Source: an uncultured Chitinophagaceae bacterium (GTDB lineage Bacteria > Bacteroidota > Bacteroidia > Chitinophagales > Chitinophagaceae). From it: a stretch of 64,000 nt of DNA. Position 1 is the first letter of the stretch, and each line of letters begins with the position of its first letter. Positions 3,295 through 43,143 of this stretch are shown here, piece by piece. The position numbers and the translations under genes are program-made. The notes under the pieces are model-generated. The model saw nothing but the letters and a program-made list of their open reading frames with translations. It searched no databases and had not been told where the DNA came from. The DNA is taken from positions 22,100 through 86,099 of the forward strand of contig CAXSDW010000003.1 in the NCBI GenBank assembly GCA_964236235.1, read 5' to 3'.

Positions 3295-4170
3295 TTATAA
3301 GACATTAAGAATTTGTTCTTTTGATTTTTCAAGCTCATCTTTCATGTATACAACACATTTTTGTATATCAGAGTCGTAAGCTTTTGATCCGGTGGTATTT
3401 ATTTCACGACCTATTTCCTGCAGCACAAATGAAAGTTTTTTCCCTTTCGCTTCTTCTTTATCATTGAGTATATTTTTAAAGTATTCACAGTGATTTTTAA
3501 GTCTTACCTGTTCTTCAGTAATATCTATCTTTTCAATATAATAAATAAGTTCCTGCTCCAGCCTGTTAGGGTCATAGTTTTCTTTACCCACATTTTCTTC
3601 TAATATTTTTACCAGTTCATCTTTCATTCTTTGTTTTCGCTGAGGCACTAATTTTAAAATTGCATCTTCCTGTGCAGCAATATTTTTCATACGCAGCAGC
3701 AATTCGGTCTCTATTGATTTACCTTCTTCACATCTGTGACTTTCTAATTCTTTCAAAGCTTCTTCAAGTACTTTTTTAAGCTCTTTCCAATCATCTTCAT
3801 CAAGTATTTCATTTGATGGAGTAACCACTTCGGGCAACCTTAAAAGAGCGCTTAGCACTGAGTTTGTATCAATGTTAAGCTCATTGGCAAGTACCTCAAT
3901 TTGCTTATAATAAGCTTTTATAAGGTCAGTGTTTATTACAACAGGTTTTGAAGAACCATTTTGCTTAATTGTAATAAAGCAATCAATGCTTCCTCTCACA
4001 AGCTTTTCCTGCAAAAGGTTTCTTACATCAAACTCATAAGATTTTAATAATGGTGGAATTTTTAAATTCATCTCTAACTGTTTTCCGTTTAAAGATTTTA
4101 TTTCTACCAAAAAAGTTTTCTCGTTTACTGTTTTTTCTGCACGTCCAAAACCCGTCATTGATTTTAGCAT
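3295..4170 (-). CDS. yicC: YicC/YloC family endoribonuclease
   Basis: MLKSMTGFGR N-terminus, EIKSLN, KIDITEE.VRL..H, GKKLSFVLQEIGREINTTGSK, EQILNVL. Confidence 0.92.
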   Translation of the reverse strand: MLKSMTGFGRAEKTVNEKTFLVEIKSLNGKQLEMNLKIPPLLKSYEFDVRNLLQEKLVRGSIDCFITIKQNGSSKPVVINTDLIKAYYKQIEVLANELNIDTNSVLSALLRLPEVVTPSNEILDEDDWKELKKVLEEALKELESHRCEEGKSIETELLLRMKNIAAQEDAILKLVPQRKQRMKDELVKILEENVGKENYDPNRLEQELIYYIEKIDITEEQVRLKNHCEYFKNILNDKEEAKGKKLSFVLQEIGREINTTGSKAYDSDIQKCVVYMKDELEKSKEQILNVL

Positions 4171-4751
4171 TTAGTATTTAGTTTAAGTTTTGAAGCAAGT
4201 GTCTTTAAAAAATGAAAAATAAAATCAACATAAATAGTTCCCAAAAATAATAAAGCCCGACTTTTTGTTGCCGGGCCTTGTTATATGGATGGGTTAGTAA
4301 GTACCGGGAAAAAATTTCCCTACACAATAATAAAAATAATTTTTTTTAACGTAAAATAATTTGCCTATTAATTTATCAACATTTTATTTTTTGTTGTGGA
4401 TAAGGACACTCGTTTTTAAAGTGCAATCATCCATTTATGTTATTAACATAAAATAAAAACGCTCACAGCATCCTTGTAATAAAAGTATGAGTATGCTGAA
4501 GCTCTCTATTCATAAGGGTTCCGGAGTTGCAGCAATATATTTAATCATTGCATTCATTTTTAATTGATGTAAATAAGATGTTGAAATGTTATCTCATTAA
4601 AGTAATCTTAAAATAAAAAATATTTTTTAACCTGTTATCAAAAGAAGGCGATCGATTTCTGATCTTACCAGTTTTTATTTTTTTAAGTTCAATGTTATCA
4701 TGGTTAACTATAATTATATTGGATGGTTACCTTTGATTCAAATACTTATTA
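4171..4751. other. Candidate replication origin (oriC)
   Basis: 580-bp AT-rich gap between divergent genes; perfect DnaA box TGTGGATAA 4395-4403; TTATCAACA 4373-4381; TTATTAACA 4440-4448; TTATCAAAA 4635-4643; GATC-containing T-rich tract ~4649-4685. Confidence 0.6.
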
Positions 4752-27410: not shown

Positions 27411-27424
27411 TTGAGACGTTATTT

Positions 27425-27440
27425 GTAGAAATATTTCCAC
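27425..27440. promoter_or_regulatory. Palindromic candidate upstream activator site for the Ku promoter
   Basis: GTAGAAAT-ATTTCCAC near-perfect dyad ~60-75 bp upstream of the -24/-12 element. Confidence 0.45.
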
Positions 27441-27501
27441 GTAGTATTATTTTCTTATTTTTTCATATTTTTATTAATGCGCTATTAATAGTATAATAAA
27501 A

Positions 27502-27516
27502 AGGCATAATACTTTC
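27502..27516 (+). promoter_or_regulatory. sigma54 -24/-12-like element upstream of ku
   Basis: AGGCA-TAATAC-TTTC, 34 nt before the ATG. Confidence 0.5.
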
Positions 27517-27549
27517 TTATACAAATTATTAGATAATCAAACTCATTTT

Positions 27550-28326
27550 ATGCGACCGATTTGGACAGGCGCTATAGGTTTTGGACTGGTAAACATCCCG
27601 GTTAAATTATATAGTGCAACACAATCAAGTAATCTTGATCTTGATATGCTCGATAAAAAGGATCATTCAAACATAAGATTTATGCGGGTGAATGAAAAAA
27701 CAGGCAAAGAAGTTACCTGGGAAAATATTGTAAAAGGATACAAAACTGATAATGATTATGTGATACTTGAGCCAAAAGATTTTGAGGCAGCAAGCGCAAA
27801 AAAAACAAAGACCATAGAGATTTCTGATTTTGTGAAAGAAGAAGAAATAAGCAGCATTTATTATGAAACGCCTTATTACGTTGAGCCCGATAAATCGGGA
27901 ACAAGAGCTTATGAATTATTAAGACAGGCATTACAAAAAACGGGTAAAATTGGTATATCAACATTTGTAATGAGAAGCAAAGAAAGCCTGGCAGTACTAA
28001 GAGCTACAAAGGATTTAATTATTTTGAACAAGATAAGATTTGAAGAAGAAATCCGGGATTTTAAAGACCTCGCATTACCAGAAAAAACTGATGTAAAACC
28101 TGCAGAACTTACAATGGCTGTTTCTCTTATAAACCAACTCACAGGTAAATTTGATATTTCTCAATATAAGGATACATACAATGCGGAACTATTAAAATTG
28201 ATACAGGCAAAATCCAAAGGTGAGAAGATTATAGCTCCTGAAATGAAAGTGGTTCACAGTAAAACAAAAGACCTGATGGCTCAGCTTAAAGCAAGCCTTG
28301 ATGTAAAACGTAAAAAAGCTTCGTAA
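27550..28326 (+). CDS. ku: NHEJ DNA end-binding protein Ku
   Basis: MRPIWTGAIGFGLVNIPVKLYSA, IYYETPYYV.P, AYELLRQAL, DLMAQLKASL. Confidence 0.96.
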   Translation: MRPIWTGAIGFGLVNIPVKLYSATQSSNLDLDMLDKKDHSNIRFMRVNEKTGKEVTWENIVKGYKTDNDYVILEPKDFEAASAKKTKTIEISDFVKEEEISSIYYETPYYVEPDKSGTRAYELLRQALQKTGKIGISTFVMRSKESLAVLRATKDLIILNKIRFEEEIRDFKDLALPEKTDVKPAELTMAVSLINQLTGKFDISQYKDTYNAELLKLIQAKSKGEKIIAPEMKVVHSKTKDLMAQLKASLDVKRKKAS

Positions 28327-28327
28327 T

Positions 28328-28933
28328 ATGGCTCTGACACTTTATAATAAAAAAAGAAATTTTAACGATACACCTGAGCCTTCAGGAAAGTTAACAAAGT
28401 CTGCTTCCAAATTATCTTTTGTAGTGCAACGCCACAAAGCCTCCCGTTTACATTATGATTTTAGATTGGAAATGGAAGGTGTCTTAAAAAGCTGGGCCGT
28501 TCCAAAAGGTCCATCTCTTAATCCGAAAGATAAGCGTTTGGCAATGATGGTAGAAGATCATCCTTATGATTATAAAGATTTCAGTGGCATAATACCTGAA
28601 GGAAATTACGGTGCAGGAATAGTGGAAATTTGGGACGAAGGTTATTATTCTGATCTGGAGAATTCTGAAAAGCCTGTCGCAGAAAAGAACTTGCTGGCTG
28701 GCTTAAAATCCGGGAATCTTAAAGTAAGATTATTTGGTAAAAAGCTTAAAGGCGAATTTGCTTTAGTTAAGCTAAAAGGTAAAGAAGAAAATACATGGTT
28801 ACTTATAAAGCATAATGACGAATATGCAGTTCACGAAGATTACGATAGTGAAAATGATACTCCGGATAACTCTCCCATAAATAAATGGCTTAAAGAAAAT
28901 AAGCAACCCGTTAAAAAAAAACTTCCTTCATAA
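28328..28933 (+). CDS. ligD: LigD 3'-phosphoesterase domain (probable N-terminal part of a recoded LigD)
   Basis: FVVQRHKASRLHYDFRLE, LKSWAVPKGPS.P, EDHP.DY, GNYGAG.V.IWD; ends at an A9 run. Confidence 0.93.
   Translation: MALTLYNKKRNFNDTPEPSGKLTKSASKLSFVVQRHKASRLHYDFRLEMEGVLKSWAVPKGPSLNPKDKRLAMMVEDHPYDYKDFSGIIPEGNYGAGIVEIWDEGYYSDLENSEKPVAEKNLLAGLKSGNLKVRLFGKKLKGEFALVKLKGKEENTWLLIKHNDEYAVHEDYDSENDTPDNSPINKWLKENKQPVKKKLPS
28913..28921 (+). other. A9 slippery run linking the two ligD ORFs in the -1 frame
   Basis: GTT AAA AAA AAA CTT; the -1 frame is open from 28915 and reads KKTSFITSVKQSRQLTSFIKPMLA. Confidence 0.6.
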
Positions 28934-28977
28934 CATCAGTAAAACAGAGCAGGCAACTTACCAGTTTTATCAAGCCG

Positions 28978-30837
28978 ATGCTGGCAAAGGAAACCAAGGA
29001 AGTTTTTGATGACGATAAATGGCTGTTCGAAATTAAATGGGACGGTTACAGGGCTATTTCTGAAATTGAAAATGGTAACGTCAGGCTCTATTCACGCAAT
29101 GGAATTACGTTCGAAAACTCCTATCCTGTTGTTGCCAGAGAATTAAAAAATATAAAAGAGAATTGTGTGCTGGATGGTGAGATAGTTGTGCTTAATGATG
29201 AAGGCCATCCTGAATTTCAGCTTTTGCAGCATTATGAAGATAATACACACCGGCCCATCCAATACTGTGTATTTGACCTGTTATCACTTAATGGAAATGA
29301 TACCTGCTCTTTGGCTTTAGTAGAAAGAAAGGAATTGCTGAAAAGGATAATTGAAAAGAATGATGTAATAAAATATTCTGATCACATTTTTGGAACAGGA
29401 AAATCATTTTTTGAAGTAACAAAAGAGCAAGGCCTTGAAGGAATAATGGCAAAAAAAAGCGACAGCCAATATTACAAAGGAAGACGAACCAGTGAATGGC
29501 TGAAAATAAAACACAATCAAACACAGGAAGCCATCATAGCAGGATACACATCACCTGGCGGAGGCAGAAAATATTTTGGCGCTTTGGTGTTGGCTATAAA
29601 AGATGGAAATAAACTTAAGTATATTGGTCATACAGGCTCAGGTTTTAATAACAAATCATTAAAAGAAATGTATGAAACCTTGCAGCCATTGGTGCAGGAA
29701 GAATCTCCATTTGATGAGAAGGTAAAAACCAATATGCCGGTAACATGGGTGAAACCTAAGCTCGTTTGCGAAATCAAATTCACTGAAGTAACTAATGATG
29801 GCAAATTAAGACACCCAATATTTCTTCATTTAAGAGAAGACAAATCAGTTAAAGAAGTAACCATGGCAAATACAAAAGCAATCACAAAATCACAGTCAGA
29901 AAAAGAAAAAGGTGATGAAAAAAATGATAAATCAAAAGTTTACACATTTGGAAAAATAAAAGTTGCTACATCAAACCCAACTAAAATTTATTTTCCTGAT
30001 GATGGAGTTACTAAAGGCGATGTAATTGAATATTATATTTCTATGAGTGAGTATATCTTACCTTATTTAAAAGGCCGTCCGGAATCACTTTTAAGAAACC
30101 CGAATGGCATAAATGCCAAAGGTTTTTTTCATAAAGATGCAGGAGAAGAAGCGCCGTCTTTTGTAAAAAGTAAAAAGGTACATTCTGATTCCGGGAACAA
30201 AGACATTGACTATATACTTTGTGATAACCAGGCAACACTTACTTACCTTAATAACCTTGGTTGCATCGAGATTAATCCATGGCATTCAACTGTTGAAGCG
30301 CTTGATTATCCTGATTATCTCATTATTGATATTGATCCGTCTGACCAAAATACTTTTGAGCAGGTGATAGAAGCAGCCAATGTTGTTAAACAGGTTTTAG
30401 ATAAAGCCGGCGCTGCTGCTTATTGTAAAACCTCCGGAGCATCCGGCTTACACATATATGTACCTACTGCAAAAAAATATACGTATGACCAGGTGAAAGA
30501 TTTTGCTTACCTCGTGTGCATGCTGGCTAATGAGCAGCTTCCTGAGTTTACCACATTGGAAAGAAATTTACAGAAAAGAGGGAACCGGCATATATACATG
30601 GATTATCTGCAAAACAGGAGAGGTCAAACTATTGCTTCGGTTTATAGCCTTAGGCCAAAAGCAGGTGCAACGGTGTCTACCCCGCTATTATGGAAAGAAG
30701 TTAAGAGTGGGTTATCTCCTAAAAACTTTAATATAAAAAATACTTTAGAAAGGGTAAAAAAGACCGGAGATATGTTTAAAGATATTTTGGGAAAGGGAAT
30801 AGACCTTAATAAATGCCTTAAGAAACTTGATGGTTAA
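28978..30837 (+). CDS. ligD: LigD ATP-dependent ligase plus primase-polymerase domains
   Basis: WLFEIKWDGYRA (motif I), EGIMAKK, LRHP, IIDIDP, KTSGASGLHI, DYLQN, TPL.W.EV. Confidence 0.95.
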   Translation: MLAKETKEVFDDDKWLFEIKWDGYRAISEIENGNVRLYSRNGITFENSYPVVARELKNIKENCVLDGEIVVLNDEGHPEFQLLQHYEDNTHRPIQYCVFDLLSLNGNDTCSLALVERKELLKRIIEKNDVIKYSDHIFGTGKSFFEVTKEQGLEGIMAKKSDSQYYKGRRTSEWLKIKHNQTQEAIIAGYTSPGGGRKYFGALVLAIKDGNKLKYIGHTGSGFNNKSLKEMYETLQPLVQEESPFDEKVKTNMPVTWVKPKLVCEIKFTEVTNDGKLRHPIFLHLREDKSVKEVTMANTKAITKSQSEKEKGDEKNDKSKVYTFGKIKVATSNPTKIYFPDDGVTKGDVIEYYISMSEYILPYLKGRPESLLRNPNGINAKGFFHKDAGEEAPSFVKSKKVHSDSGNKDIDYILCDNQATLTYLNNLGCIEINPWHSTVEALDYPDYLIIDIDPSDQNTFEQVIEAANVVKQVLDKAGAAAYCKTSGASGLHIYVPTAKKYTYDQVKDFAYLVCMLANEQLPEFTTLERNLQKRGNRHIYMDYLQNRRGQTIASVYSLRPKAGATVSTPLLWKEVKSGLSPKNFNIKNTLERVKKTGDMFKDILGKGIDLNKCLKKLDG

Positions 30838-31234
30838 CACGGGAACGTGAAAATATTCGCTTAAGAATATTTCCTTTTTTAGGAGAGTTAGTGCTATTGG
30901 AGCCAGCTTTAGCAACCAATGAGGTAACGCCAAACTGTAAAGCAGTGCCTGCTAATCTTTTTAAAAGTCCGGCAGATCTTCCTATTACTAATTTTTGTGA
31001 CAAGTAACCTGCGCCTAAACCAAGAGCAACATTTAAAAGATTATGACGAAACTTTGGCGATGCGGAAACCTCGGTTAAAGTATTTTTTAAAAGATTTGCA
31101 GGTTTATAAGTTTCATAAGTTTCGTGAAACTCGTATTTCAGTGCAGCTTCTTCTATATCTTTCCTTTTTTCGAGATCAGCTATTGCATTTTTAAGATCTT
31201 CCGAATTGTGTATATTATGTAACTTTTTACTCAT
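30818..31234 (-). CDS. Hypothetical membrane-anchored protein, third gene of the YtxH/holin-like trio
   Basis: Coiled-coil N-terminus (LKNAIADLE) and GLGAGYL hydrophobic segment; co-oriented with its neighbours. Confidence 0.6.
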   Translation of the reverse strand: MSKKLHNIHNSEDLKNAIADLEKRKDIEEAALKYEFHETYETYKPANLLKNTLTEVSASPKFRHNLLNVALGLGAGYLSQKLVIGRSAGLLKRLAGTALQFGVTSLVAKAGSNSTNSPKKGNILKRIFSRSRVNHQVS

Positions 31235-31254
31235 TATTCAGGGTACTTAAAAAA

Positions 31255-31596
31255 CTAATCAATTAATTCTTTTACCATCATATTAATAACAGGTTTTTTC
31301 ACCCATTTTTCCCTGTTCTTCAACAAAATAAATCCGATAACAGCGTATAAAGCAGCTACGATAAAAAAACCATAATAAGATTTGCCTAACAGGTCGCCAA
31401 TCAAAAGTGCCAGTGCTACATTAAAAAGCATAAAAAAAAGCACAAATACTACGAACACTACCAGGTAGGTAATTAATACTGAAATAAAACCAGAGGATTT
31501 ATCAATAGCTTTTAACTTCAATAAATCAATCCTTGTTTCAATATAATTACGCGTTCTTTCTACCAATGATTCAATAGAACTTCTATTATTTTCCAT
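31255..31596 (-). CDS. Phage-holin-superfamily-III-like (YqjE-type) membrane protein
   Basis: YIETRIDLLKLKAIDK..., two TMs, GFFIVAALY; start MENN at 31596 preferred. Confidence 0.7.
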   Translation of the reverse strand: MENNRSSIESLVERTRNYIETRIDLLKLKAIDKSSGFISVLITYLVVFVVFVLFFMLFNVALALLIGDLLGKSYYGFFIVAALYAVIGFILLKNREKWVKKPVINMMVKELID

Positions 31597-31659
31597 TGGT
31601 ATAGTTTCTTTTATGTCCTGACTTTTATACGCTGCCACCGGAAGATTATTTAGTTGTAA

Positions 31660-31977
31660 CTAGGAGTTCATGTTATTTCTGATATCTGAATTCATGGTGT
31701 CTGCTTTCATCGCATTGCCTTTATCTTTGGCCTGGTTAAGCATATCCCGTCCTTCAGATGCTAATCCTGATATTTTTTCTTTAGCCGCGTCATATTTTTC
31801 AGAAATTACATCAGAATACTGATTGTATTTATCTTTTACTGAATCGGCAAGATCAGAACCTTTTTCAGATAATTTTCTCCTGGTTTCTGTGCCACGATCA
31901 GGGGCAAATAGTATCCCGAGGATTGCGCCTGCAGCGGCACCGGCTAAAACACTTGCTAATACTTTACCTGAGCTCAT
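31660..31977 (-). CDS. YtxH domain protein
   Basis: VLAGAAAGAILGILFAPDRG.ETRRKL signature. Confidence 0.9.
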   Translation of the reverse strand: MSSGKVLASVLAGAAAGAILGILFAPDRGTETRRKLSEKGSDLADSVKDKYNQYSDVISEKYDAAKEKISGLASEGRDMLNQAKDKGNAMKADTMNSDIRNNMNS

Positions 31978-32024
31978 AATTATAATTTTATTGATTTAAA
32001 ATAAGAATTGTTTCCAATAAGCAT

Positions 32025-32039
32025 ATAAATATTTTGCCA
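32025..32039 (-). promoter_or_regulatory. sigma54 -24/-12-like element upstream of ytxH
   Basis: TGGCA-AAATAT-TTAT, 48 nt before the ATG. Confidence 0.5.
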
Positions 32040-32208
32040 AAGTTTATTTGCTGTCGTTTTACTCTAAAAGCTAATAATTGAAGCAGTTATAAATGCCGGA
32101 CACATTTGCAATGAGTATTTTTTTTCCCACTCTGAGGAAGATATTTATGGTTTCTTTAATTAAGATTTTGTTTGGTGTAATAACGCTACATTATTATCAT
32201 AATTTTAT

Positions 32209-32223
32209 TGGCATAATCTTTTT
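32209..32223 (+). promoter_or_regulatory. sigma54 -24/-12-like element upstream of the yciF remnant
   Basis: TGGCA-TAATCT-TTTT, 41 nt before ATG 32264. Confidence 0.45.
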
Positions 32224-32263
32224 AAGGTAGAAATAAATCATTGATCATTTTAAATTAATTTTC

Positions 32264-32399
32264 ATGGAAAAACCAAAATCCAAAAGCAAATATTCTTCTT
32301 CAGCTAATAGATCAAACGCTTACAGAAGAAAAACAAACAGATGAATTATTGACAAGCAGTGCTGAAATTAATATCAATTTGAAGGCAGTTCAGGATTAA
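32264..32399 (+). pseudogene. Remnant of a YciE/YciF (DUF892) ferritin-like stress protein
   Basis: ATG start MEKPKSKSK; the +1 frame reads LLQLIDQTLTEEKQTDELLTSSAEININLKAVQD*, matching the DUF892 terminal helix TL.EEK.TD..LT..A...N.KA. Confidence 0.7.
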
Positions 32400-32445
32400 T
32401 TTGAGCTTATAGATTACTTAAATTTATATCATTAAAGTTAAATTA

Positions 32446-32479
32446 AAAAGCCAGGTAATAGTTAAGTTACCTGGCTTTT
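32446..32479. terminator. Bidirectional intrinsic terminator
   Basis: AAAAGCCAGGTAA-8 nt-TTACCTGGCTTTT, perfect 13-bp inverted repeat. Confidence 0.8.
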
Positions 32480-32500
32480 AAATATCTCTAAATTTTAAGG

Positions 32501-32785
32501 TTGGAAAAATTTTTAAATGGCAATGGTTTTATTCAGCTGATTGGATTAGTAGCCGGCATTTTAACTTCTTTATCTCTGATGCCTCAGTTAATAAAAACAT
32601 ATAAAACTAAAAAAGCTGAAGAAATTTCGTTTGTAATGCTTTTAACCTTACTTATAGGTGTTGGTCTTTGGATTTATTATGGCACATTGAGAAGTGATTT
32701 ACCGATAATTATTACCAATTCATTTTCATTTTTATTAAATGTTATTTTAATAGGCATGAGAATTAAATACCGGAAGAATAAGTAG
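32501..32785 (+). CDS. SemiSWEET / PQ-loop transporter
   Basis: IGLVAGILTS.SLMPQLIKT.KTK.A..IS, LWIYYG, PII.TN; 3 TMs. Confidence 0.88.
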   Translation: MEKFLNGNGFIQLIGLVAGILTSLSLMPQLIKTYKTKKAEEISFVMLLTLLIGVGLWIYYGTLRSDLPIIITNSFSFLLNVILIGMRIKYRKNK

Positions 32786-32869
32786 AATTTAATCACGATC
32801 ATTAAATAACGTTCATTAAAACATAATTGTAATTTTTTAAGTATGTACTTTCCCAAATAAAAAAACAAC

Positions 32870-33358
32870 ATGAAAAACAGATCAGATCTTGCCCCATTTT
32901 TTAATAAATTTTCAAATATTGTAACCAGGGCTACAGGCACACCTTTGGCTTTTATCCTGGCACTTTTGGTAATTATAATTTGGGGTGTTACAGGCCCGTT
33001 ATTTCATTTTTCTGATACCTGGCAATTAGTAATAAATACAGGTACAACGGTGATTACTTTTTTAATGGTATTTGTTATTCAACATTCTCAAAATAAAGAT
33101 ACAAAGGCAATACAATTAAAATTAAACGAACTAATAGCTGCCAATTGTGATGCAAGCAACCGGCTGGTGAATATTGAAGATCTTACAGATAAAGAACTGG
33201 AAGTAATTAAGAAATTTTACATTCATCTTTCTCAGAGCGCAAAAGCGGAGAGCGACGTGTTTGCAACCCATTCACTTGATGAAGCAACACAAAATAATGT
33301 AAATAAAAACAGGGGTAAACTTAAATCTAAAAATAAAAATAATCAACATGCAACGTAA
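32870..33358 (+). CDS. Low-affinity iron permease (Fet4-like) family protein
   Basis: W..TGP.F.FSDTWQLVINTGTT..TFLMVF.IQ..QN.D..AIQLKLNELI. Confidence 0.9.
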   Translation: MKNRSDLAPFFNKFSNIVTRATGTPLAFILALLVIIIWGVTGPLFHFSDTWQLVINTGTTVITFLMVFVIQHSQNKDTKAIQLKLNELIAANCDASNRLVNIEDLTDKELEVIKKFYIHLSQSAKAESDVFATHSLDEATQNNVNKNRGKLKSKNKNNQHAT

Positions 33359-33518
33359 CAAAACCTTACTTTATTCATTATTAGTAATTATTATTTTTGC
33401 AACAAGCAGCTGCCAGGCTATTGGCGATGTTTTTAAAACAGGAGTTTGGGCAGGTGTAATTTTAGTAGTAGTGGTTATTGCTTTAATTTTTTGGTTAATA
33501 AACCGGGCAAAAAAATAA
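33348..33518 (+). CDS. 56-aa lipoprotein-like membrane protein (not in the ORF track)
   Basis: MQRNKTLLYSLLVIIIFATSSCQAIGDVFKTGVWAGVILVVVVIALIFWLINRAKK; lipobox-like TSSC plus a TM helix; overlaps the Fet4 stop. Confidence 0.75.
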   Translation: MQRNKTLLYSLLVIIIFATSSCQAIGDVFKTGVWAGVILVVVVIALIFWLINRAKK

Positions 33519-33694
33519 AATTATAAAGCATAAGCAGTTAGTATTTTTGATTATATCTCTCCTTTAAGTTAGTCCACCTAAGCTGGTATTTATTTATGAT
33601 TTAACTTTTCAGCGTTACTTCATAAGATATTTTAGGCGTAACTATACATTAACCTGTTATGTGTGGCTTAATTGATTATTGATATAATTAAAGT

Positions 33695-35104
33695 ATGCTA
33701 ACTAATATAGTAGATAAAATTGCGGATAGAGTAAGGTGGAGATATCTTATTGCATTTATTCTTTTGCTTACTTCTTATGTACTTACTTTTTATACTACGC
33801 AAAGATTATTAGACCAGGCTAAATTAGTTAATCACACTAATAGTGTTTTAAATAATCTTGATTTACTGATCTCTACCGTAAAGGATGCTGACTTTTCCTT
33901 TGGAGAGTATGTTATTGCAAAAGATGAACGGTTTTTAGATGCTTATAAAAGCAGCGAATCAACCATAGATTCACTTTTTAAAGCGCTTGAAAACCTTGTA
34001 ACTGATAATAAGTTACAAGTTAAACGGCTTGATACTCTTCATCTCTTAATACAACAAAAATATGCCCTTGTATCAACAGCTCATTCGCTTTTTAGAGAGA
34101 ATAATTACCAGGTAACAGACGCATTAAAAATTACCAGTTATAGCAGCAAACATAAGATGGATGAAATACGCCATTTAATGTTGAAAATGCAAAATGAAGA
34201 AAATGTTTTGATGTTAAAAAGATCAGGCAGGCTTTCATCATTCTCTGATTTTATTAAAACAATTAATATTGCTTCTCTTATCGTTGCGATACTATTAACT
34301 TTTTATTCCATCATAACTTTTACCAAGGAAAACAGGGCAAAAAAAGAAGCCGATTATAACGCAAAAGAATTTAGAAGACAACTTGAATTACGCATTAAAG
34401 AATTAGATGCTTTAAATAAAGAATTATTAGAATTAAAAAGCATAGAAAAATTTGCCGTTACCGGAAGAATCTCCAGAACTATTGCTCATGAAGTAAGAAA
34501 TCCTTTAACCAATATAAGCCTTGCAGCTGAGCAAATTCGCTCAGAAGTGCCGCCTAATCCGGAAATAGATTTATTGTTAGATATGATTACACGAAACGGT
34601 AACAGGATTAATCAACTGATAAGCGATCTTTTAAATTCAACAAAAATTACACAACTAAATTTTTCAAAAGTTTCTTTAAATGATTTGTTGGATGCAAGCC
34701 TGGAATTTGCCCAGGACAGGATTGAATTAAAAGGAATTAAGGTAATTAAAAATTATACGCCTGATCTATGCGATATATTAGCTGATACTGAAAAATTAAA
34801 AATCGCTTTCTTAAATATCATCGTTAATGCAATTGAGGCAATGGAAGCTAATGATGGAATTCTTCTAATAAAAACTGCACATAAAGACGGACGCTGTGTT
34901 GCCGCCATCACTGATAACGGCAGGGGCATGAGTAAAGAACATCTTTCAAAACTATTTGAGCCCTATTTTACCACAAAAGAAAATGGAACCGGGCTTGGTC
35001 TTGCCCATACGCAAAATATTATTATTGGCCACAAAGCCAATATACAGGTTGAAAGTGAAATCAGCAAAGGCACCACTTTTACAATCACATTAAATTACGG
35101 GTAA
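33695..35104 (+). CDS. CHASE3-type NtrB-like sensor histidine kinase
   Basis: Two TMs around a V.HT..VL..L..L periplasmic domain; IAHEVRNPL, NIIVNAIEA, DNGRGM, FEPYFTTKE.GTGLGL. Confidence 0.9.
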   Translation: MLTNIVDKIADRVRWRYLIAFILLLTSYVLTFYTTQRLLDQAKLVNHTNSVLNNLDLLISTVKDADFSFGEYVIAKDERFLDAYKSSESTIDSLFKALENLVTDNKLQVKRLDTLHLLIQQKYALVSTAHSLFRENNYQVTDALKITSYSSKHKMDEIRHLMLKMQNEENVLMLKRSGRLSSFSDFIKTINIASLIVAILLTFYSIITFTKENRAKKEADYNAKEFRRQLELRIKELDALNKELLELKSIEKFAVTGRISRTIAHEVRNPLTNISLAAEQIRSEVPPNPEIDLLLDMITRNGNRINQLISDLLNSTKITQLNFSKVSLNDLLDASLEFAQDRIELKGIKVIKNYTPDLCDILADTEKLKIAFLNIIVNAIEAMEANDGILLIKTAHKDGRCVAAITDNGRGMSKEHLSKLFEPYFTTKENGTGLGLAHTQNIIIGHKANIQVESEISKGTTFTITLNYG

Positions 35105-35116
35105 CAAATAATTACT

Positions 35117-36250
35117 TTAATTAATAGTTGAACTATCCACTTTCTTGGTTTTTTTCAAATTTCTCAGCCGGCTGTATAATTTATATTTTTGTAAAGGTGT
35201 TATATCATCTCCCAACAACATTCCCCAGGGTTTTAAATCGTCTACCTGGTCACAAATAATTTTTATTAAAGCTACAGCCGGTACTGATAGAAACAGTCCT
35301 GATAAACCCGTTAAAGCGCCGCCAATAATTACTCCCAGGATGGATATTAATGCATTTATTCTCACTTTTGAACCTACAACTTTAGGCATCAGAATATTTA
35401 CATCAATTATATGAATGCCGTACATAACTATTATTATCCATGCAATAACATTAGTATTATTTGACGTGGTAAGTGAAATTAAAATAGTAAATAAAGTTGC
35501 CGTAAACATGCCGATGTATGGAATTACATTTAATATGGCCGCCAACACACCAAAGAAAATAGCATACTTAATTCCTATAAGAGCAAGACCAATTGAATTA
35601 GAAGCCGCTACTATGGCCATTTCTATAACAAGGCCAAGCATATAATTATGAATCATGAGCTTGGATTGTTTAATAACCAAAGATACTTTATCGCCCTGCT
35701 CTCTTGTGAAAACAGCAAACAGAAATCTTCTTATCAGGTCTCTGTAATATAATATAAGGAAGGTGTAAATTGGCAAAAGAATCAACAGCATTAAAGCTTC
35801 TGTGATAGAAAAAAAAGTGTTTCTTATATAACCTGTACCAGAGTCCCTCAATTTTTCAGCAGCATTATTTAAATATTCATTCTGCTCATTAAAAGAGATG
35901 TGAAGCTTTGATTTTATCCATCCCTGTAAGGCAATAAAATGATCGCTGAGGTGTTTTTTTATTGAAGGAATGTCATCAACAAAACTGGCAATTTGTGTAG
36001 ATAAAAAATATACAATTCCGGCTAAACAAACAACTGAAAAAAGGAGCGATAATGCAATTGAGAGAACTCTTGACAAACCTTTTTTTTCAAAAAAATTTGC
36101 TAACGGTAATAATAGTACAGCTAACAAGATTGCAAAGGCAAAAGGTATCAGAATGTTTTGTGATACATTAATAAAAAAGCAAATAAAAAATATTACCAGG
36201 AACTTAAAAGCAAGCTTTACATAAAAGGGTGAGTCATTGGTGATCAACAT
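35117..36250 (-). CDS. AI-2E (PerM/YhhT) family transporter
   Basis: ILIPFAFAILLA.LL.P, LNVIPYIG, N.LMPKVVGSKV.IN, GLFL.VP. Confidence 0.9.
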   Translation of the reverse strand: MLITNDSPFYVKLAFKFLVIFFICFFINVSQNILIPFAFAILLAVLLLPLANFFEKKGLSRVLSIALSLLFSVVCLAGIVYFLSTQIASFVDDIPSIKKHLSDHFIALQGWIKSKLHISFNEQNEYLNNAAEKLRDSGTGYIRNTFFSITEALMLLILLPIYTFLILYYRDLIRRFLFAVFTREQGDKVSLVIKQSKLMIHNYMLGLVIEMAIVAASNSIGLALIGIKYAIFFGVLAAILNVIPYIGMFTATLFTILISLTTSNNTNVIAWIIIVMYGIHIIDVNILMPKVVGSKVRINALISILGVIIGGALTGLSGLFLSVPAVALIKIICDQVDDLKPWGMLLGDDITPLQKYKLYSRLRNLKKTKKVDSSTIN

Positions 36251-36262
36251 ATATATAACATT

Positions 36263-36289
36263 AAAAAGCCCTCATGATATGAGGGCTTT
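36263..36289 (-). terminator. Intrinsic terminator
   Basis: AAAGCCCTCAT-GAT-ATGAGGGCTTT inverted repeat with a U5 tract on the minus strand. Confidence 0.75.
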
Positions 36290-36525
36290 AAAGCTAATTT
36301 AGAAAAGAAAAATTGTAAAATATAATATCAGTTATTTACCATTTTACAATTTCAGTTTTTGTAACAAGATTAATTTGCAATTGTCTTAATCATCATTTTT
36401 TTCCTATTCTTGCCTTAACTTGTAATCTAATAAATCATATTCTTTATTGCCTTCTTTTGCCTGAAAATCTATTTACATAGAATTCATAACTATAAAGACA
36501 ATTGATGAAGAGATATTTAAAAGCA

Positions 36526-36681
36526 TTAAACGTCGCTTCTTCTTATCACTTTCAACAATATTGCAATTATTGCAATTACCAAAAGAATATGAATTAATCC
36601 GCCCGTATAGTAACCTCCAAAAAAACTAATTGCCCAGATGATTACCAGTATTACTGCGATAAGATATAATATGTTTCCCAT
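36526..36681 (-). CDS. lmo0937-family (DUF5670) 51-aa membrane protein (not in the ORF track)
   Basis: MGNILYLIAVILVIIWAISFFGGYYTGGLIHILLVIAIIAILLKVIRRSDV; family pattern L..IAVIL.I.W...F......G.LIH.LLV.A.I. Confidence 0.88.
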   Translation of the reverse strand: MGNILYLIAVILVIIWAISFFGGYYTGGLIHILLVIAIIAILLKVIRRSDV

Positions 36682-36729
36682 GTTAAAAAAAGATTTAGGT
36701 TAAAAAAAAATTTATACGGTTTTAAATAT

Positions 36730-36744
36730 ATAAAAATATTGCCA
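36730..36744 (-). promoter_or_regulatory. sigma54 -24/-12-like element upstream of the lmo0937-family gene
   Basis: TGGCA-ATATTT-TTAT, 49 nt before the ATG. Confidence 0.5.
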
Positions 36745-36838
36745 GAAAATTAACAAGTGCTATCTTCTTTTATTTTATCAATAATGCATTTAAAAGTAAA
36801 ACCGTCGGGGAAATAACTCTACGAAATGTGGGCAAATC

Positions 36839-37237
36839 TTAGCTATGAATATTTTCAAGTAAGCTATTTAAGGTTTTAATGATACTGTCTTTATTAAAAG
36901 GCTTTCCAATAAAGCGATCAAGGCCCCTGTTAAATGCATTCATTTTATCCTCTTTAGTATCATGAGCACTAATCATTATAATTTTAGAAAGCGGATGATC
37001 TTGTTTTATCTGGCCGATAAAGTCAACTCCAAAGCCATCGGGTAAATGATTATCCAGAAAAATAATGTCGGGCTTTTTCTCAAATAATACTCTTGTTGCA
37101 GAAGCAAGCGTAGTAACATAAGAGGTTTTAAAGTTTAATTTCCTTAAAATACTGCTCAGTAAAAAGCAAATATCTAACTCATCATCTATTATTAAAACTT
37201 CAAAATTTTTTTCTGATTCCTGATGCATCACATACAA
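36839..37237 (-). CDS. Single-domain response regulator
   Basis: LIIDDE, FLDNHLPDGFG, MISAH, KPF; no output domain. Confidence 0.9.
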   Translation of the reverse strand: MYVMHQESEKNFEVLIIDDELDICFLLSSILRKLNFKTSYVTTLASATRVLFEKKPDIIFLDNHLPDGFGVDFIGQIKQDHPLSKIIMISAHDTKEDKMNAFNRGLDRFIGKPFNKDSIIKTLNSLLENIHS

Positions 37238-37251
37238 TCTTTTTATAATTT

Positions 37252-37268
37252 AGGCAATTAATTTGCCA
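37252..37268. promoter_or_regulatory. Overlapping divergent sigma54 -24/-12 elements
   Basis: Minus strand TGGCA-AATTAA-TTGC (37268-37254, full consensus); plus strand AGGCA-ATTAAT-TTGC (37252-37266). Confidence 0.65.
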
Positions 37269-37381
37269 GTTATAAATGTTTAGTTTGTTTTTAAACGGAT
37301 AATAAATCTCCAAACATGGAATAACATCATCTAACTTCGTAATGTAACAGACAGTATTTTTGTTTAAACGAAATGTAATAA

Positions 37382-38317
37382 ATGAAGAAAAAAATTATTA
37401 CCATTTTTACGTATCTTAAACAGGTATTTACCGAATTTTCTGAAGATAATATTCTAAAATATAGCGCATCTCTGGCTTATTACACTGTGTTTGCTTTGGC
37501 GCCCTTGCTTATTGTGATAATATCGCTTAGCAGTATATTTTATGCACCCGAAGCAATGCAGGGGCATATATTTTCTCAGATTAAAGATTTAGTTGGTCCG
37601 GCTGCGGCATTGCAAATTCAGGATACAATTAAAAATATACACATTTCAGGCAGAGGTTTTTTTGCAAGTGTAATTAGCATAATAGTATTAATAATCGGTG
37701 CCACAGGAATTTTTAGTGAGGTGCAGGATTCTTTAAATAAAATATGGGGTTTAAAAGTTCAAACAAAAAAAACGTGGTGGAAATTAATTCTTACACGCCT
37801 CTTATCTTTTTCTTTAATAGTAAGTATAGGATTTATAATGACGGTATCATTAATATTAAATGCTTTAATTTCTGCTTTTGGTACCTACCTTGGCAGGTAT
37901 CTTTCTGAGTTCAGTTTGTTATTTATTCAGATAACCGATAGTGTGCTAAGTTTTTTAGCTACAACTTTTTTGTTTGCATTGATGTTTAAAGTATTGCCGG
38001 ATGCAAAAATTAAATGGAAAGATGTATTAATAGGCGGGTTAATTACGTCAACATTTTTTACTTTGGGCAAACTGGGTATTGGTTATTATTTAGGCCAAAG
38101 TAATCTTACCACTTTGTATGGCGCCGCCGGGTCTATTATCATCATCATGGTGTGGGTGTATTACAGTGCAGTAATTCTATATTTAGGTGCTGAGTTTACA
38201 AAAGTATATGCAAAACTTCATGGCGGAAGAATACAACCTAATGAGTATGCAGTTTGGATAAAAACAGAAGAAGTAGAAGTTGGAAACCCTGTATTAAAAA
38301 AGAAAGTTTTAGAGTAG
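37382..38317 (+). CDS. YihY/BrkB family membrane protein
   Basis: SASLAYYTVFALAPLL, GATGIF.EVQDSLNKIW, LPDAKI.W, YGAAGSII..MVWVYYS. Confidence 0.92.
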   Translation: MKKKIITIFTYLKQVFTEFSEDNILKYSASLAYYTVFALAPLLIVIISLSSIFYAPEAMQGHIFSQIKDLVGPAAALQIQDTIKNIHISGRGFFASVISIIVLIIGATGIFSEVQDSLNKIWGLKVQTKKTWWKLILTRLLSFSLIVSIGFIMTVSLILNALISAFGTYLGRYLSEFSLLFIQITDSVLSFLATTFLFALMFKVLPDAKIKWKDVLIGGLITSTFFTLGKLGIGYYLGQSNLTTLYGAAGSIIIIMVWVYYSAVILYLGAEFTKVYAKLHGGRIQPNEYAVWIKTEEVEVGNPVLKKKVLE

Positions 38318-38347
38318 ATTTGCACTCCTTATTATCATAAATTAATT

Positions 38348-39757
38348 ATGAAAAAAAGAATTCTTATTATTGATGATGATCTTGACATGTGCCTTCTGCT
38401 TGGCAGGTTTCTTATAAAAAAAGGATACGAAGCTGATTCAGCGCATAGTGCAGCAAAAGGAATTGCTAAATTTTTTGAAGGAAATTATGATATTGTGTTG
38501 TGTGATTACCGTCTTGGCGATAAAGACGGCAGAGATGTATTACAAAAGATAAAAGAAATAAAGCCTCAAACGATAGTTATAATTATTACCGGATATTCCG
38601 ATATCAAAACTGCTGTGGATGTAATTAAGCTTGGCGCTTTTGATTATATAACCAAGCCGCTAATTCCGGATGAAGTGGTTAATGTAATTGAAAATGCGTT
38701 ATCAAAATCTTCAGATAATAAATTACCGGATATTCAAACACCTGAAATAAAAGTAAAAAAGCCTTATGTTGTTTCTGCCGACCAGGAATTTTTAGTAGGC
38801 CAGGATGGAGAAACAGCTCACTTATATAAGCAAATAGAAATTGTTGCTTCTACTAATTACAGTATAATATTATACGGTGAAAGCGGTACTGGTAAAGAAT
38901 TAATTGCCAAAACGATTCATGAATACAGCAACAGGAAAAACATGCCCTTTATTGCAATAGATTGTGGAACTCTTTCAAAGGAACTTGCGGGAAGTGAATT
39001 ATTTGGCCATGTAAAAGGAAGTTTTACAGGAGCAATAATTGATAAAGAGGGGCACTTTGAATTGGCTAACGGAGGTACACTTTTTTTAGATGAGGTTACT
39101 AATCTTTCTTACGAAATACAGGCAGCATTATTAAGAGTGATACAGGAAAGAAAATTTAAAAGAGTAGGCGGCACTAAAGAAATGGATGTAGATATAAGGA
39201 TCATTGTAGCATCTAATGAGAATCTGCAGGACGCTTACAGAAAAGGAAAATTTCGTGAAGATCTTTATCACAGGTTTAATGAATTTTCAATTAACCTGCC
39301 ACCTTTAAGAAACCGTAAAATAGACATTCCGTTATTTGCTGATTTCTTTCTTGATAAAACCAATAAAGAATTAGGTAAACATGTTGAAGGCTACGAGGAT
39401 AATGTGATGGAAATGTTTTTAAATTATAGCTGGCCGGGGAATCTCAGGGAATTCAGGAACGTGGTTCGCAGAGCCGTGCTGCTAACGCCTTCTGGTAAAA
39501 TAAGCGCTAAGGTATTGCCGTGGGAAATTGCTAATTCTTATCTTCATCAGCCTTATGTTGAAAATAATGTGCATCAGGAAAATAATGTTGTAATCCCCAA
39601 AGATCTGGATCTGAAAGATGCAGCTGCAAAAGCTGAATACGATACTATAATGAACGTTTTAAAAGACGTTAATTTTAATAAAACCAAAGCAGCCGAGATT
39701 CTTAAGATAGATAGAAAAACGTTGTATAATAAAATTAAAGTATATCAATCTTTGTAG
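38348..39757 (+). CDS. NtrC-family sigma54-dependent response regulator (bEBP)
   Basis: Receiver LCDYRL; Walker A GESGTGKE; GSFTGA; Walker B TLFLDE; FREDLYHR; WPGNLRE; Fis-type HTH NKTKAAEILKIDRKTLYNK. Confidence 0.95.
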   Translation: MKKRILIIDDDLDMCLLLGRFLIKKGYEADSAHSAAKGIAKFFEGNYDIVLCDYRLGDKDGRDVLQKIKEIKPQTIVIIITGYSDIKTAVDVIKLGAFDYITKPLIPDEVVNVIENALSKSSDNKLPDIQTPEIKVKKPYVVSADQEFLVGQDGETAHLYKQIEIVASTNYSIILYGESGTGKELIAKTIHEYSNRKNMPFIAIDCGTLSKELAGSELFGHVKGSFTGAIIDKEGHFELANGGTLFLDEVTNLSYEIQAALLRVIQERKFKRVGGTKEMDVDIRIIVASNENLQDAYRKGKFREDLYHRFNEFSINLPPLRNRKIDIPLFADFFLDKTNKELGKHVEGYEDNVMEMFLNYSWPGNLREFRNVVRRAVLLTPSGKISAKVLPWEIANSYLHQPYVENNVHQENNVVIPKDLDLKDAAAKAEYDTIMNVLKDVNFNKTKAAEILKIDRKTLYNKIKVYQSL

Positions 39758-39804
39758 TTTTTCTTTAAACAATTACGTAAATTATTAATTACGTTTGAGG
39801 TAAA

Positions 39805-39819
39805 GGGTACAAGATTTGT
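39805..39819 (+). promoter_or_regulatory. sigma54 -24/-12-like element
   Basis: GGGTA-CAAGAT-TTGT, 32 nt before ATG 39851. Confidence 0.45.
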
Positions 39820-39850
39820 CTTTGAGATTATTCACTTAAATAACATATTT

Positions 39851-40201
39851 ATGATAGAGCAAAAGCCAGGTGAAATGTCCACCTTAACCTCAGTATTAGA
39901 AAAATTAAGAATAAAAAAGCATGATAAAGAATTTAGAATGACTCCTGAAGGATTTTCTGCCGGAACGGGTAAAGTATATCAGCCGCAGGATCTTAAAATT
40001 ATACGTACTTACCGGTTTGAAGGCGAATCTGATCCTTCAGATAATACCATTGTTTATCTTATTGAAGCAAATAATGGATTAATAGGATATTCGATGGATG
40101 CTTATGGTGTTTACAGTGACCATGATGATGACGGCTATGATGATTTTATAAGAAAAATCCCGGTAGAAGAAAGAGATGAGCAACAAATTTTTCAGGATTA
40201 A
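39851..40201 (+). CDS. Conserved Bacteroidota hypothetical protein
   Basis: I...YRFEGESDPSDN.IVY.IE...G..G...DAYG.YS pattern; function unknown. Confidence 0.75.
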   Translation: MIEQKPGEMSTLTSVLEKLRIKKHDKEFRMTPEGFSAGTGKVYQPQDLKIIRTYRFEGESDPSDNTIVYLIEANNGLIGYSMDAYGVYSDHDDDGYDDFIRKIPVEERDEQQIFQD

Positions 40202-43096: not shown

Positions 43097-43143
43097 TCTT
43101 ATAAAGATAAAAAAATATGCCTGCTATAAGTGTAATGATATGC

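Follow-up and report, generated by a model that had tools for sequence, protein, structure and literature searches.

A probable sigma-54-type regulon of general-stress genes, including ku-ligD, at a conserved chromosomal locus of Ginsengibacter-like Chitinophagaceae

Introduction

What controls a set of stress-type genes, among them those for non-homologous end joining (NHEJ), that surrounds a membrane kinase, a stand-alone receiver and an NtrC-type activator (enhancer-binding protein) in a Chitinophagaceae bacterium? The locus that raises this question occupies 27.5-40.2 kb of a 64-kb stretch of DNA, hereafter the window (contig CAXSDW010000003.1 of assembly GCA_964236235.1; G+C content ~35%), from the genome of a soil or lichen Chitinophagaceae bacterium. 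To our knowledge, the classical stress sigma factors are absent from Bacteroidota, and the organization of general stress and dormancy responses in this phylum is poorly known; sigma-54 of Bacteroidota has so far been tied mainly to chaperone and gliding genes. A preliminary description of the window read the region as a self-contained, sigma-54-driven stress and NHEJ island in which seven transcription starts carry the element GGYA-N6-TT. Judging from the comparison with related loci, we consider that the locus is probably a sigma-54/enhancer-binding-protein regulon, conserved on the chromosome among Ginsengibacter-like Chitinophagaceae and with targets of the general-stress type, and that sigma-54 may drive a general-stress-like programme in this bacterium.

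Ginsengibacter and other Chitinophagaceae are the nearest named relatives of the window. Related loci were collected by a metagenome scan with hyp116, an acidic 116-aa hypothetical protein encoded at the end of the locus (80 loci, L005-L084, 59-89% protein identity), by look-ups of Ku homologues (nine loci, L085-L093, 81-91% identity), by a look-up of hyp116 homologues, which led to the cultured species Ginsengibacter hankyongi (L094), and by a scan of a genome collection with the kinase, which returned two relatives only; L001 is Chitinophagaceae bacterium UBA4407. The related loci amount to ~90 in all, and their protein identities range from 35% to 91%, so that they are not near-identical strains. 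Gene identities between 27.5 and 40.2 kb were assigned by Pfam and NCBIfam profiles (Table 1).

Six conserved promoter blocks

The upstream regions of six genes (ku, ytxH, the DUF892/YciF gene, the DUF5670 gene, the receiver gene and hyp116) share with those of their orthologs a block of 17-20 nt that starts with (T)GGCA or GGTA and keeps a mostly constant distance to the ATG; the sequence on either side of it drifts. Across the orthologous upstream regions, the blocks average 1.0-1.6 bits of information per column, versus 0.4-0.85 for the flanks. A position-weight matrix (PWM) built from the sites of the relatives only returned the receiver, DUF892-remnant, ytxH and ku sites as its four best matches over the whole 64 kb and both strands, with the receiver site ranked first and the DUF892-remnant site second. 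When ~0.85 Mb of related loci was scanned in the same way, the conserved matches were nearly confined to these families, the few additional ones being DUF6496, a DUF2383-like four-helix protein, and a 179-aa protein. From this conservation, we regard the six promoter elements as very probably real.

The families differ in detail. Before ku, the block AAAAAGGCAYAATACTTTC is present in 8/8 close ku loci, 37-48 nt before the ATG and between divergent flanks, and it is kept, together with the upstream element described below, in L088 and L093, in which ku is not linked to the regulator module; this fits control in trans. The ytxH block reads TTGGCA(A/G)AATATTTTAT, with TTGGCA and the T-run invariant in all 16 distinct upstream regions (~60-64 nt before the ATG), and takes the form TGGCAGCATTTTAG in the clade of L001, L058 and L062. 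The DUF892 block TTGGCATAATCTTT is invariant in the six loci with an intact DUF892 gene (6/6; ~47-69 nt before the ATG), and the DUF5670 block TGGCAA-N3-TTTTT was found in 17/19 distinct orthologous upstream regions, ~60 nt before the ATG. The receiver gene is present in most loci, and its block CTGGCAGATWAATTGCC was seen in ~19 distinct loci, 28-41 nt before the receiver ATG. The hyp116 block, which reads GGTAYRGAWTTTGC(C) or, in a more distant clade, TGGCAYGNATTTAGA, has the canonical spacing in 63 of 74 distinct upstream regions, at a variable distance from the ATG (median 53 nt).

Some further sites of this kind stand outside the six families. The fifth-best PWM match in the window, ATAGGCAAATTATTTTACGTT (4347-4367, -), lies ~195 nt upstream of a gene for a YicC-like endoribonuclease (3295-4170, -). 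In UBA4407, TGGCA-type sites are also present at dps, at a small lipoprotein-like gene (TGGCAGGATATTTAT) and at csbD (L001, 7640-7720, 13030-13050 and 11694-11750), which suggests, as far as such matches go, a larger regulon in that organism. In a distant clade (L001, 15782-15958; L050, L053, L058, L062, L068, L074 and L079-L081), a box AAAATCATGCCAA stands 50-80 nt upstream of the hyp116 promoter; its opposite strand reads TTGGCATGATTTT, that is, another promoter of the same type, which in L001 faces a divergent gene for a 188-aa protein (15215-15781, -).

The promoter class

In classical sigma-54 promoters, ten bases separate the GG at -24 from the GC at -12 (TGGCAC-N5-TTGC). In the window, all six sites have the GG and, in register with it, the TT at -15/-14. 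The receiver promoter is canonical, and most hyp116 orthologs have GG-N10-GC (as in GGTACAGATTTTGC) versus GT in the window copy. The other four blocks (ku, ytxH, DUF892 and DUF5670) combine TGGCA with a T-run and are here called T-rich.

Orthologous promoters bridge the two forms: those of hyp116 grade from GGTACAGATTTTGCC to TGGCATGTATTTAGAA, and those of ytxH from TGGCAAAATATTTTAT to TGGCAGCATTTTAGT. The latter, the ytxH block of L062, is identical at 12 of 15 positions to the remF promoter of Flavobacterium psychrophilum (TGGCACGATTTTAGT), and the F. psychrophilum groES promoter (TTGGCATAATTTCTGA) nearly equals the DUF892 block. Both belong to the SM4 class of F. psychrophilum, in which promoters with mapped transcription start sites (TSSs), namely groES, remF TTGGCACGATTTTAGT, CGGCATATTGTTTGT and TGGTCTAACTTTTGT, were assigned to sigma-54 by the authors (Guerin et al., 2021; PMC9723704 and its supplement), and the motif bases of remF were tested by mutagenesis (PMC9723704). 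Promoters without the -12 GC are thus already among those assigned to sigma-54 at mapped starts in Bacteroidota. In addition, each T-rich block is one contiguous unit of 17-20 nt, strictly oriented, constant in its distance from the ATG and without dyad symmetry. Because of the bridging orthologs, the likeness to SM4 and this single-unit layout, the T-rich blocks appear to be of the same type as the canonical ones, and we consider it likely from these comparisons that all six elements are sigma-54-type promoters. Chaperone genes, which were sought for a promoter comparison, were not found in the related loci examined.

A candidate activator-binding element

Upstream of the ku and DUF5670 promoters, the pattern GT[AG]GA-N5-TTCC has its only two matches in the window (0.4 expected from shuffles), in the same orientation relative to its own promoter in each case. 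The conserved block upstream of ku in the relatives reads TGTAGAAAnnnTTCCTCA, and the element is present in 7/8 ku loci (69-82 nt from the GG) and in 13 DUF5670 loci (79-80, 89-90 or 102-105 nt); at DUF5670 of L001 it forms a perfect palindrome, TGTAGA-N6-TCTACA. In the region that separates the divergent promoters of ytxH and DUF892, another element of the form TTTCCCA-N4-TGAGGAAG is conserved in L085-L091, 86-101 nt from either GG, and we tentatively relate it to GTAGA-N5-TTCC on the basis of its sequence. Upstream of the receiver promoter, GTAGAG and GGGGAA half-sites were observed in L032, L044, L061, L058 and L062. We infer that GTAGA-N5-TTCC is the binding site of the local activator. 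As to whether the kinase and the activator control all six promoters through it, these sequences leave the proposal about evenly balanced.

Weighing the regulon

The following points weigh against a single sigma-54 regulon under the local kinase and activator. First, the -12 GC is absent at ku, DUF892, ytxH and DUF5670, where T, A or C stands instead, so that we can only infer sigma-54 dependence at these four sites; moreover, the assignment of SM4 to sigma-54 was made from the similarity of the motif and from mutagenesis of promoters rather than from an rpoN mutant (PMC9723704). Second, GTAGA-N5-TTCC was not found in the window upstream of the two canonical promoters (receiver and hyp116), and the two classes may therefore not share an activator; the T-rich class could be under another activator, such as that of the flavobacterial chaperone genes. 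Third, the spacings between the element and the GG cluster at 69, 77-82, 89-90 and 102-105 nt across loci, which is no more than suggestive of roughly helical steps, the clusters coming from related sequences and not from independent observations. Fourth, rpoN is not encoded in the 64-kb window, and the unit is thus not self-contained, as the preliminary description had called it. Finally, the sole public run that contains the window is a DNA run of a lichen metagenome. Contigs from soil and rhizosphere metatranscriptomes cover homologs of the ytxH operon (abundantly), DUF5670/csbD and hyp116, with almost no cover of the kinase, transporter, yihY and activator genes of L024; these contigs are from other species (88-95% identity), their alignments stay inside conserved coding parts and show no 5' ends, and they are silent on regulation.

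The best surviving alternative, which we nevertheless consider unlikely, is that the local activator serves only the receiver and hyp116 promoters, and that the four T-rich blocks, being sigma-54 promoters as well, answer to another activator, such as an ortholog of the flavobacterial chaperone one, to which GTAGA-N5-TTCC would then belong. It would account for the restriction of the element to T-rich-class promoters in the window and for the closeness of this class to the groES promoter of F. psychrophilum, a species in which three activators have distinct co-expression clusters (PMC9723704). However, the linkage of the stress genes to the kinase/activator module is tight and recurs in many genomes, where DUF5670-csbD lies nested between the kinase and receiver genes; the vicinity encodes no second activator, and in some clades GTAGAG and GGGGAA half-sites also occur upstream of the receiver promoter.

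It is less likely still that the T-rich blocks are not sigma-54 promoters at all, but the site of another sigma factor, or a repressor or activator operator over an unrecognized AT-rich promoter, so that their likeness to the -24 region would be coincidental. Apart from the lack of the -12 GC, this alternative is favored by the low information of the motif, since similar strings arise by chance in AT-rich DNA, and by the precedent of PM2 in Bacteroides thetaiotaomicron, an unassigned promoter motif of stationary phase and oxidative stress (PMC7366714). PM2 is described there as 'near-palindromic' (PMC7366714). On the other hand, TGGCA and TT stand in the exact sigma-54 register within one contiguous block, not as two boxes 16-19 nt apart, the block is strictly oriented and has no dyad symmetry, and among orthologs the promoters pass gradually into sigma-54 forms that are canonical or have experimental support. 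The Bacteroidota sigma-A-type box TAnnTTTG was not found within 160 nt upstream of ku, ytxH, the DUF892 remnant, DUF5670 or the receiver gene, and the match upstream of hyp116 (TACGTTTG at -61) is not conserved in the relatives; at ku, the stretch from the block to the ATG leaves no room for a sigma-A promoter and contains no conserved box of one. A scan for E. coli-type sigma-70 promoters gave 54 sites against 61.7 expected and was set aside, this consensus being uninformative for Bacteroidota. No known RNA family reached its gathering score in the window, and nothing relevant was found at E <= 1 in the 27.5-40.2 kb region, so that the blocks are not known riboswitches or leaders.

As to the element on which the preliminary description was built, all seven strings were found on their strands where it had placed them, and the distances to the start codons agree with those given there (16-48 nt at six sites and 115 nt on the yihY side). 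Its definition was too loose, however: GGYA-N6-TT has 153 matches in the window versus 99.9 +/- 10 in dinucleotide shuffles, or one match per 418 bp with both strands counted, and ~34 of them lie inside the 27.5-40.2 kb region. It is therefore not rarer than chance, and seven matches near gene starts prove nothing by themselves; what stood up in the cross-locus comparison is the conservation of six of the sites in orthologous loci. One of the loose matches, at the TPR gene (43121, -), was rejected as a regulon member because it is not conserved in 11 relatives, and it served as a negative control. Directly before the ATG of the same gene (window 43097-43125), a box TTTTTTATCTTTA is kept in 10/11 relatives; it probably represents the sigma-A -7 region of a TPR mRNA with almost no leader.

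The seventh site (37252), which had been taken as a promoter of its own on the yihY side, is simply the receiver promoter read on the opposite strand and was discarded. Among the seven sites, only this palindrome at 37252-37268 has the canonical TTGC at -12, and a near-palindrome arises automatically from any sigma-54 consensus that ends in TTGCC(A). This symmetry has not been conserved: relatives that have AA after the -12 box of the receiver promoter have lost it. The site stays beside the receiver gene where yihY is more distant, and it is absent from G. hankyongi, in which the receiver gene is absent and yihY and the activator gene are kept. The yihY gene carries its own TAnnTTTG box, conserved as TGTAATTTG at the same place in the relatives. 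That the shared element is a functionless chance pattern of AT-rich intergenic DNA, as the frequency of the loose motif and the unconserved TPR match might suggest, is hardly credible, since six sites are kept as blocks across dozens of divergent loci with drifting flanks and the PWM of the relatives puts four of the six at the top of the window.

Gene content and conservation of the locus

The gene calls of the preliminary description (Ku, LigD, YtxH, the lmo0937-type protein, which is DUF5670, the receiver, YihY, the NtrC-type activator and the CHASE3 kinase) were all upheld by Pfam. The operon at 27550-30837 (+) encodes Ku and all LigD domains (phosphoesterase, ATP-dependent ligase and primase-polymerase), as an NHEJ operon should, and the ku-ligD gene order is identical across L085-L093. 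Convergent to it lies the ytxH operon (30818-31977, -), whose three-gene set is kept in many loci.

In the relatives, the order is MMPL, ku and ligD; then, convergent to these, the hypothetical gene, holinX and ytxH; divergent from ytxH, DUF892 and SemiSWEET; further on, the kinase and AI-2E genes, followed on the opposite strand by csbD, DUF5670 and the receiver gene; and, divergent from the receiver gene, yihY, the activator gene, hyp116, AMP-ligase and TPR. The module of kinase, receiver, activator and hyp116 is thus syntenic with the stress genes across ~90 loci. The flanks (MMPL/RecO on one side and AMP-ligase/TPR on the other) are ordinary housekeeping genes whose synteny is kept in the relatives, which makes the locus a conserved chromosomal neighborhood. 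A mobile genomic island, as the word island in the preliminary description could imply, is ruled out by this flanking synteny, by the G+C content of the 27.5-40.2 kb region (0.28-0.38, like that of the remaining window) and by the absence from that region of integrase or transposase genes detectable by Pfam. Genes for a SigB/RpoS/EcfG-type sigma factor, an anti-sigma factor or a PhyR-type protein were likewise not found by Pfam in the region.

Table 1. Genes and predicted regulatory elements of the locus, with window coordinates
Feature	Position	Strand	Evidence or remark
Candidate activator-binding element of ku TGTAGAAATATTTCCACG	27424-27441	+	core GTAGA-N5-TTCC, match at 27425, 78 nt upstream of promoter GG
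Predicted ku-ligD promoter block AGGCATAATACTTTCTTAT	27502-27520	+	-24-like GGCA; -12 region TTTC, no G at -13
Ku	27550-28326	+	Pfam Ku 8e-50
LigD phosphoesterase, separate open reading frame (ORF)	28328-28933	+	Pfam LigD_N 4e-42
LigD ligase and primase-polymerase	28978-30837	+	Pfam DNA_ligase_A_M/C; LigD_Prim-Pol 4e-84
138-aa hypothetical protein, last of ytxH operon	30818-31234	-	
Holin-X-like membrane protein	31255-31638	-	Pfam Phage_holin_3_6
YtxH	31660-31977	-	Pfam YtxH
Predicted ytxH promoter block TGGCAAAATATTTATATGC	32021-32039	-	-12 region TTAT
Conserved element between divergent ytxH/DUF892 promoters TGAGTATTTTTTTTCCCACTCTGAGGAAG	32112-32140		core TTCC-N8-GGAA at 32124-32139
Predicted DUF892/YciF promoter block TGGCATAATCTTTTTAAGG	32209-32227	+	-12 region TTTT; intact before decayed gene
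DUF892/YciF pseudogene	32264-32396	+	26-aa N-terminal ORF (32264-32344) and out-of-frame C-terminal remnant (32295-32396)
SemiSWEET/PQ-loop protein, then low-affinity iron permease	between ytxH operon and kinase		
CHASE3-HisKA-HATPase_c kinase	33695-35104	+	Pfam
AI-2E transporter	between kinase and DUF5670		
DUF5670 (lmo0937-type) small membrane protein	36526-36681	-	Pfam DUF5670
Predicted DUF5670 promoter block TGGCAATATTTTTATATAT	36726-36744	-	-12 region TTAT
Candidate activator-binding element of DUF5670 TCGTAGAGTTATTTCCCCG	36806-36824	-	core GTAGA-N5-TTCC, match at 36822, 79 nt upstream of GG
Stand-alone receiver (CheY-like)	36839-37237	-	Pfam Response_reg; likely start ATG at 37228
Predicted receiver promoter TGGCAAATTAATTGCCTAA	37250-37268	-	canonical -24/-12, TGGCA-N6-TTGC; GG-N10-GC in TGGCAAATTAATTGC
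yihY sigma-A-type -7 box TATTTTTG (TAnnTTTG)	37355-37362	+	20 nt before yihY ATG (starts -27)
YihY/BrkB	37382-38317	+	Pfam Virul_fac_BrkB
NtrC-type activator (enhancer-binding protein)	38348-39757	+	Pfam Response_reg, Sigma54_activat, AAA_lid_14, HTH_8
Predicted hyp116 promoter GGGTACAAGATTTGTCTTT	39805-39823	+	GG-N10-GT in window copy
hyp116, acidic 116-aa hypothetical protein	39851-40201	+	

The activator has the domain composition of the NtrC family, with a receiver, an AAA+ domain (Sigma54_activat, 2.6e-64), AAA_lid_14 and HTH_8. Its sequence contains the Walker A motif GESGTGKE and LFLDEV, and its GAFTGA-type loop is intact, reading ELFGHVKGSFTGA (GSFTGA) in the window and GAFTGA in 36 of 44 orthologs. 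The NCBIfam models that fit the activator best, AtoC, NtrC and ZraR, all score below cut-off, which places it in none of these ortholog groups. The kinase has the H-box IAHEVRNPL, and its best NCBIfam models are AtoS (3e-55) and ZraS (2e-49), both below cut-off; AtoS and ZraS are kinases that pair with sigma-54 activators. Judging from its sequence, the kinase is of the NtrB/AtoS/ZraS type. In G. hankyongi (assembly GCA_008710285.1, with the locus at VYQF01000001.1:2,188,813-2,209,160; L094, 7152-7462), the whole module is present, but there is no stand-alone receiver between DUF5670 and yihY, which points to the receiver as dispensable for the circuit.

The gene most constantly linked to that of the activator is hyp116, which has 1299 homologs, mostly in soil and rhizosphere Chitinophagaceae. 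It has no sequence match in Pfam, NCBIfam or the PDB, and a Foldseek search of the PDB with its AlphaFold2 model (mean predicted local distance difference test score 64.7; an antiparallel sheet and two helices) returned nothing below E = 0.5. One source labels a hyp116 homolog 'Phosphoribosylpyrophosphate ...', a name that is cut off there.

The 'yciF remnant' noted in the preliminary description is real. With the DUF892 protein of L085 as the query, tblastn matches its last 34 residues (167-200) to 32295-32396 (56% identity, E 1.4e-5), and an intact DUF892 gene of 181-204 aa is found at the equivalent place in the relatives; by this comparison, the gene here has suffered an internal deletion and its promoter block (32209-32227) is still intact. 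A strong terminator-like hairpin is located at ~32445-32478, 3' of the remnant. The csbD gene, which follows DUF5670 in most relatives (a DUF5670-csbD operon is present in L087, L089, L091 and L094), has no tblastn match in the window. Within the 270-nt gap at 36251-36525, nothing but a terminator hairpin (36265-36289, -) is seen; 15 nt separate its end from the start codon annotated for AI-2E. Directly 3' of the iron permease gene, a 56-aa ORF (33348-33518) was noted; a 56-aa gene is also called in L086, L087, L089 and L091, and the ORF is probably a real small membrane protein.

Comparison with known systems

The closest known system is the SM4 regulon of F. psychrophilum, a member of the same phylum, in which -24/-12-type promoters at mapped TSSs, several of them without the -12 GC, drive stress genes, and NtrC-family activators are required (Guerin et al., 2021; PMC9723704). 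Its targets, however, are GroES/EL, DnaK, GrpE, HtpG, ClpB, Lon, Skp and gliding genes, and not Ku/LigD, YtxH, DUF892, DUF5670/CsbD or hyp116; in addition, neither a dedicated CHASE3 kinase module nor an upstream element has been described for SM4.

With the NtrBC, AtoSC and ZraSR systems of Proteobacteria, the locus shares an H-box of the AHE(V/I)(R/K)NPL type, an activator composed of a receiver, an AAA+ domain (GAFTGA) and a Fis-type helix-turn-helix, and, as candidates here, activator sites ~70-150 bp from a -24/-12 promoter. It differs from them in that its proteins fall below all NCBIfam equivalog cut-offs, the sensor is CHASE3, the kinase gene is not in an operon with the activator gene, and there is an additional receiver that stands alone. 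Stress and NHEJ genes are the predicted targets, and the -12 GC is missing from most of the promoters.

In gene content (YtxH, CsbD, lmo0937/DUF5670, YciF/DUF892, Dps and ku-ligD), the locus resembles the regulons of SigB (Bacillus and Listeria), RpoS (yciEFG of E. coli) and EcfG (Alphaproteobacteria); in Sphingopyxis granuli, csbD and ku-ligD are direct EcfG targets (PMC7083833). Those regulators are sigma-70-family factors under partner switching or proteolysis, whereas here we find -24/-12-type promoters, a kinase and an AAA+ activator. The PspF phage-shock system is, like the circuit proposed below, a sigma-54-dependent envelope-stress response that yields small membrane-associated proteins, but it has no receiver, is controlled by PspA, and has unrelated targets that include no NHEJ genes. 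In the literature, we found no report of ku-ligD, YtxH/CsbD or this gene set under sigma-54 in Bacteroidota.

Proposed circuit and its meaning

We propose the following circuit for the locus as a sigma-54/enhancer-binding-protein regulon. The membrane CHASE3 kinase would sense an extracytoplasmic stress signal and phosphorylate the NtrC-type activator, which would bind GTAGA-N5-TTCC(Y)C-type elements 70-105 bp upstream of the promoters and remodel the sigma-54 holoenzyme at -24/-12-type promoters, with rpoN presumably encoded elsewhere in the genome. Two of these promoters would be canonical (TGGCA-N6-TTGC and GGTA-N6-TTTGY), and the four others would be TGGCA with a T-run and no -12 GC. The predicted targets are ku-ligD, the ytxH-holinX-hyp138 operon, DUF892/YciF (a pseudogene here), DUF5670 (with csbD in the relatives), the receiver and hyp116. 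The receiver, under a canonical sigma-54 promoter, would probably feed back as a phosphate sink or connector, and yihY and the activator gene would be read from an ordinary sigma-A-type promoter. Sequence conservation shows the six promoter blocks of this circuit, and the central idea of the preliminary description, a sigma-54-type regulon of general-stress-like genes that includes NHEJ, is partly supported by the comparison of loci.

A wider proposal, to which we would give slightly less than an even chance, is that soil Chitinophagaceae, and perhaps many Bacteroidota without SigB, RpoS or EcfG, rely on sigma-54 for their general stress or dormancy response, with one pair of a CHASE3 kinase and an NtrC-type activator switching on ku-ligD, YtxH, YciF/DUF892, DUF5670-CsbD, Dps-type proteins and the hyp116 family from promoters in which a T-run replaces the -12 GC. 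Such a system would be the Bacteroidota counterpart of SigB and EcfG, and it would place NHEJ under sigma-54 and an enhancer-binding protein, the first case of bacterial end joining under such control that we found in the literature. It would also support the view that sigma-54 promoters of Bacteroidota can dispense with the -12 GC, and standard position-weight scans would then miss such promoters systematically. For hyp116, a widespread family of >1,000 homologs to which no function is assigned, it would provide a clear regulatory context. If the proposal is true, abundant soil and rhizosphere bacteria, including G. hankyongi as a cultured carrier of the module, would possess a compact circuit of kinase, activator, upstream element and promoter for genes that protect against conditions such as desiccation and starvation.

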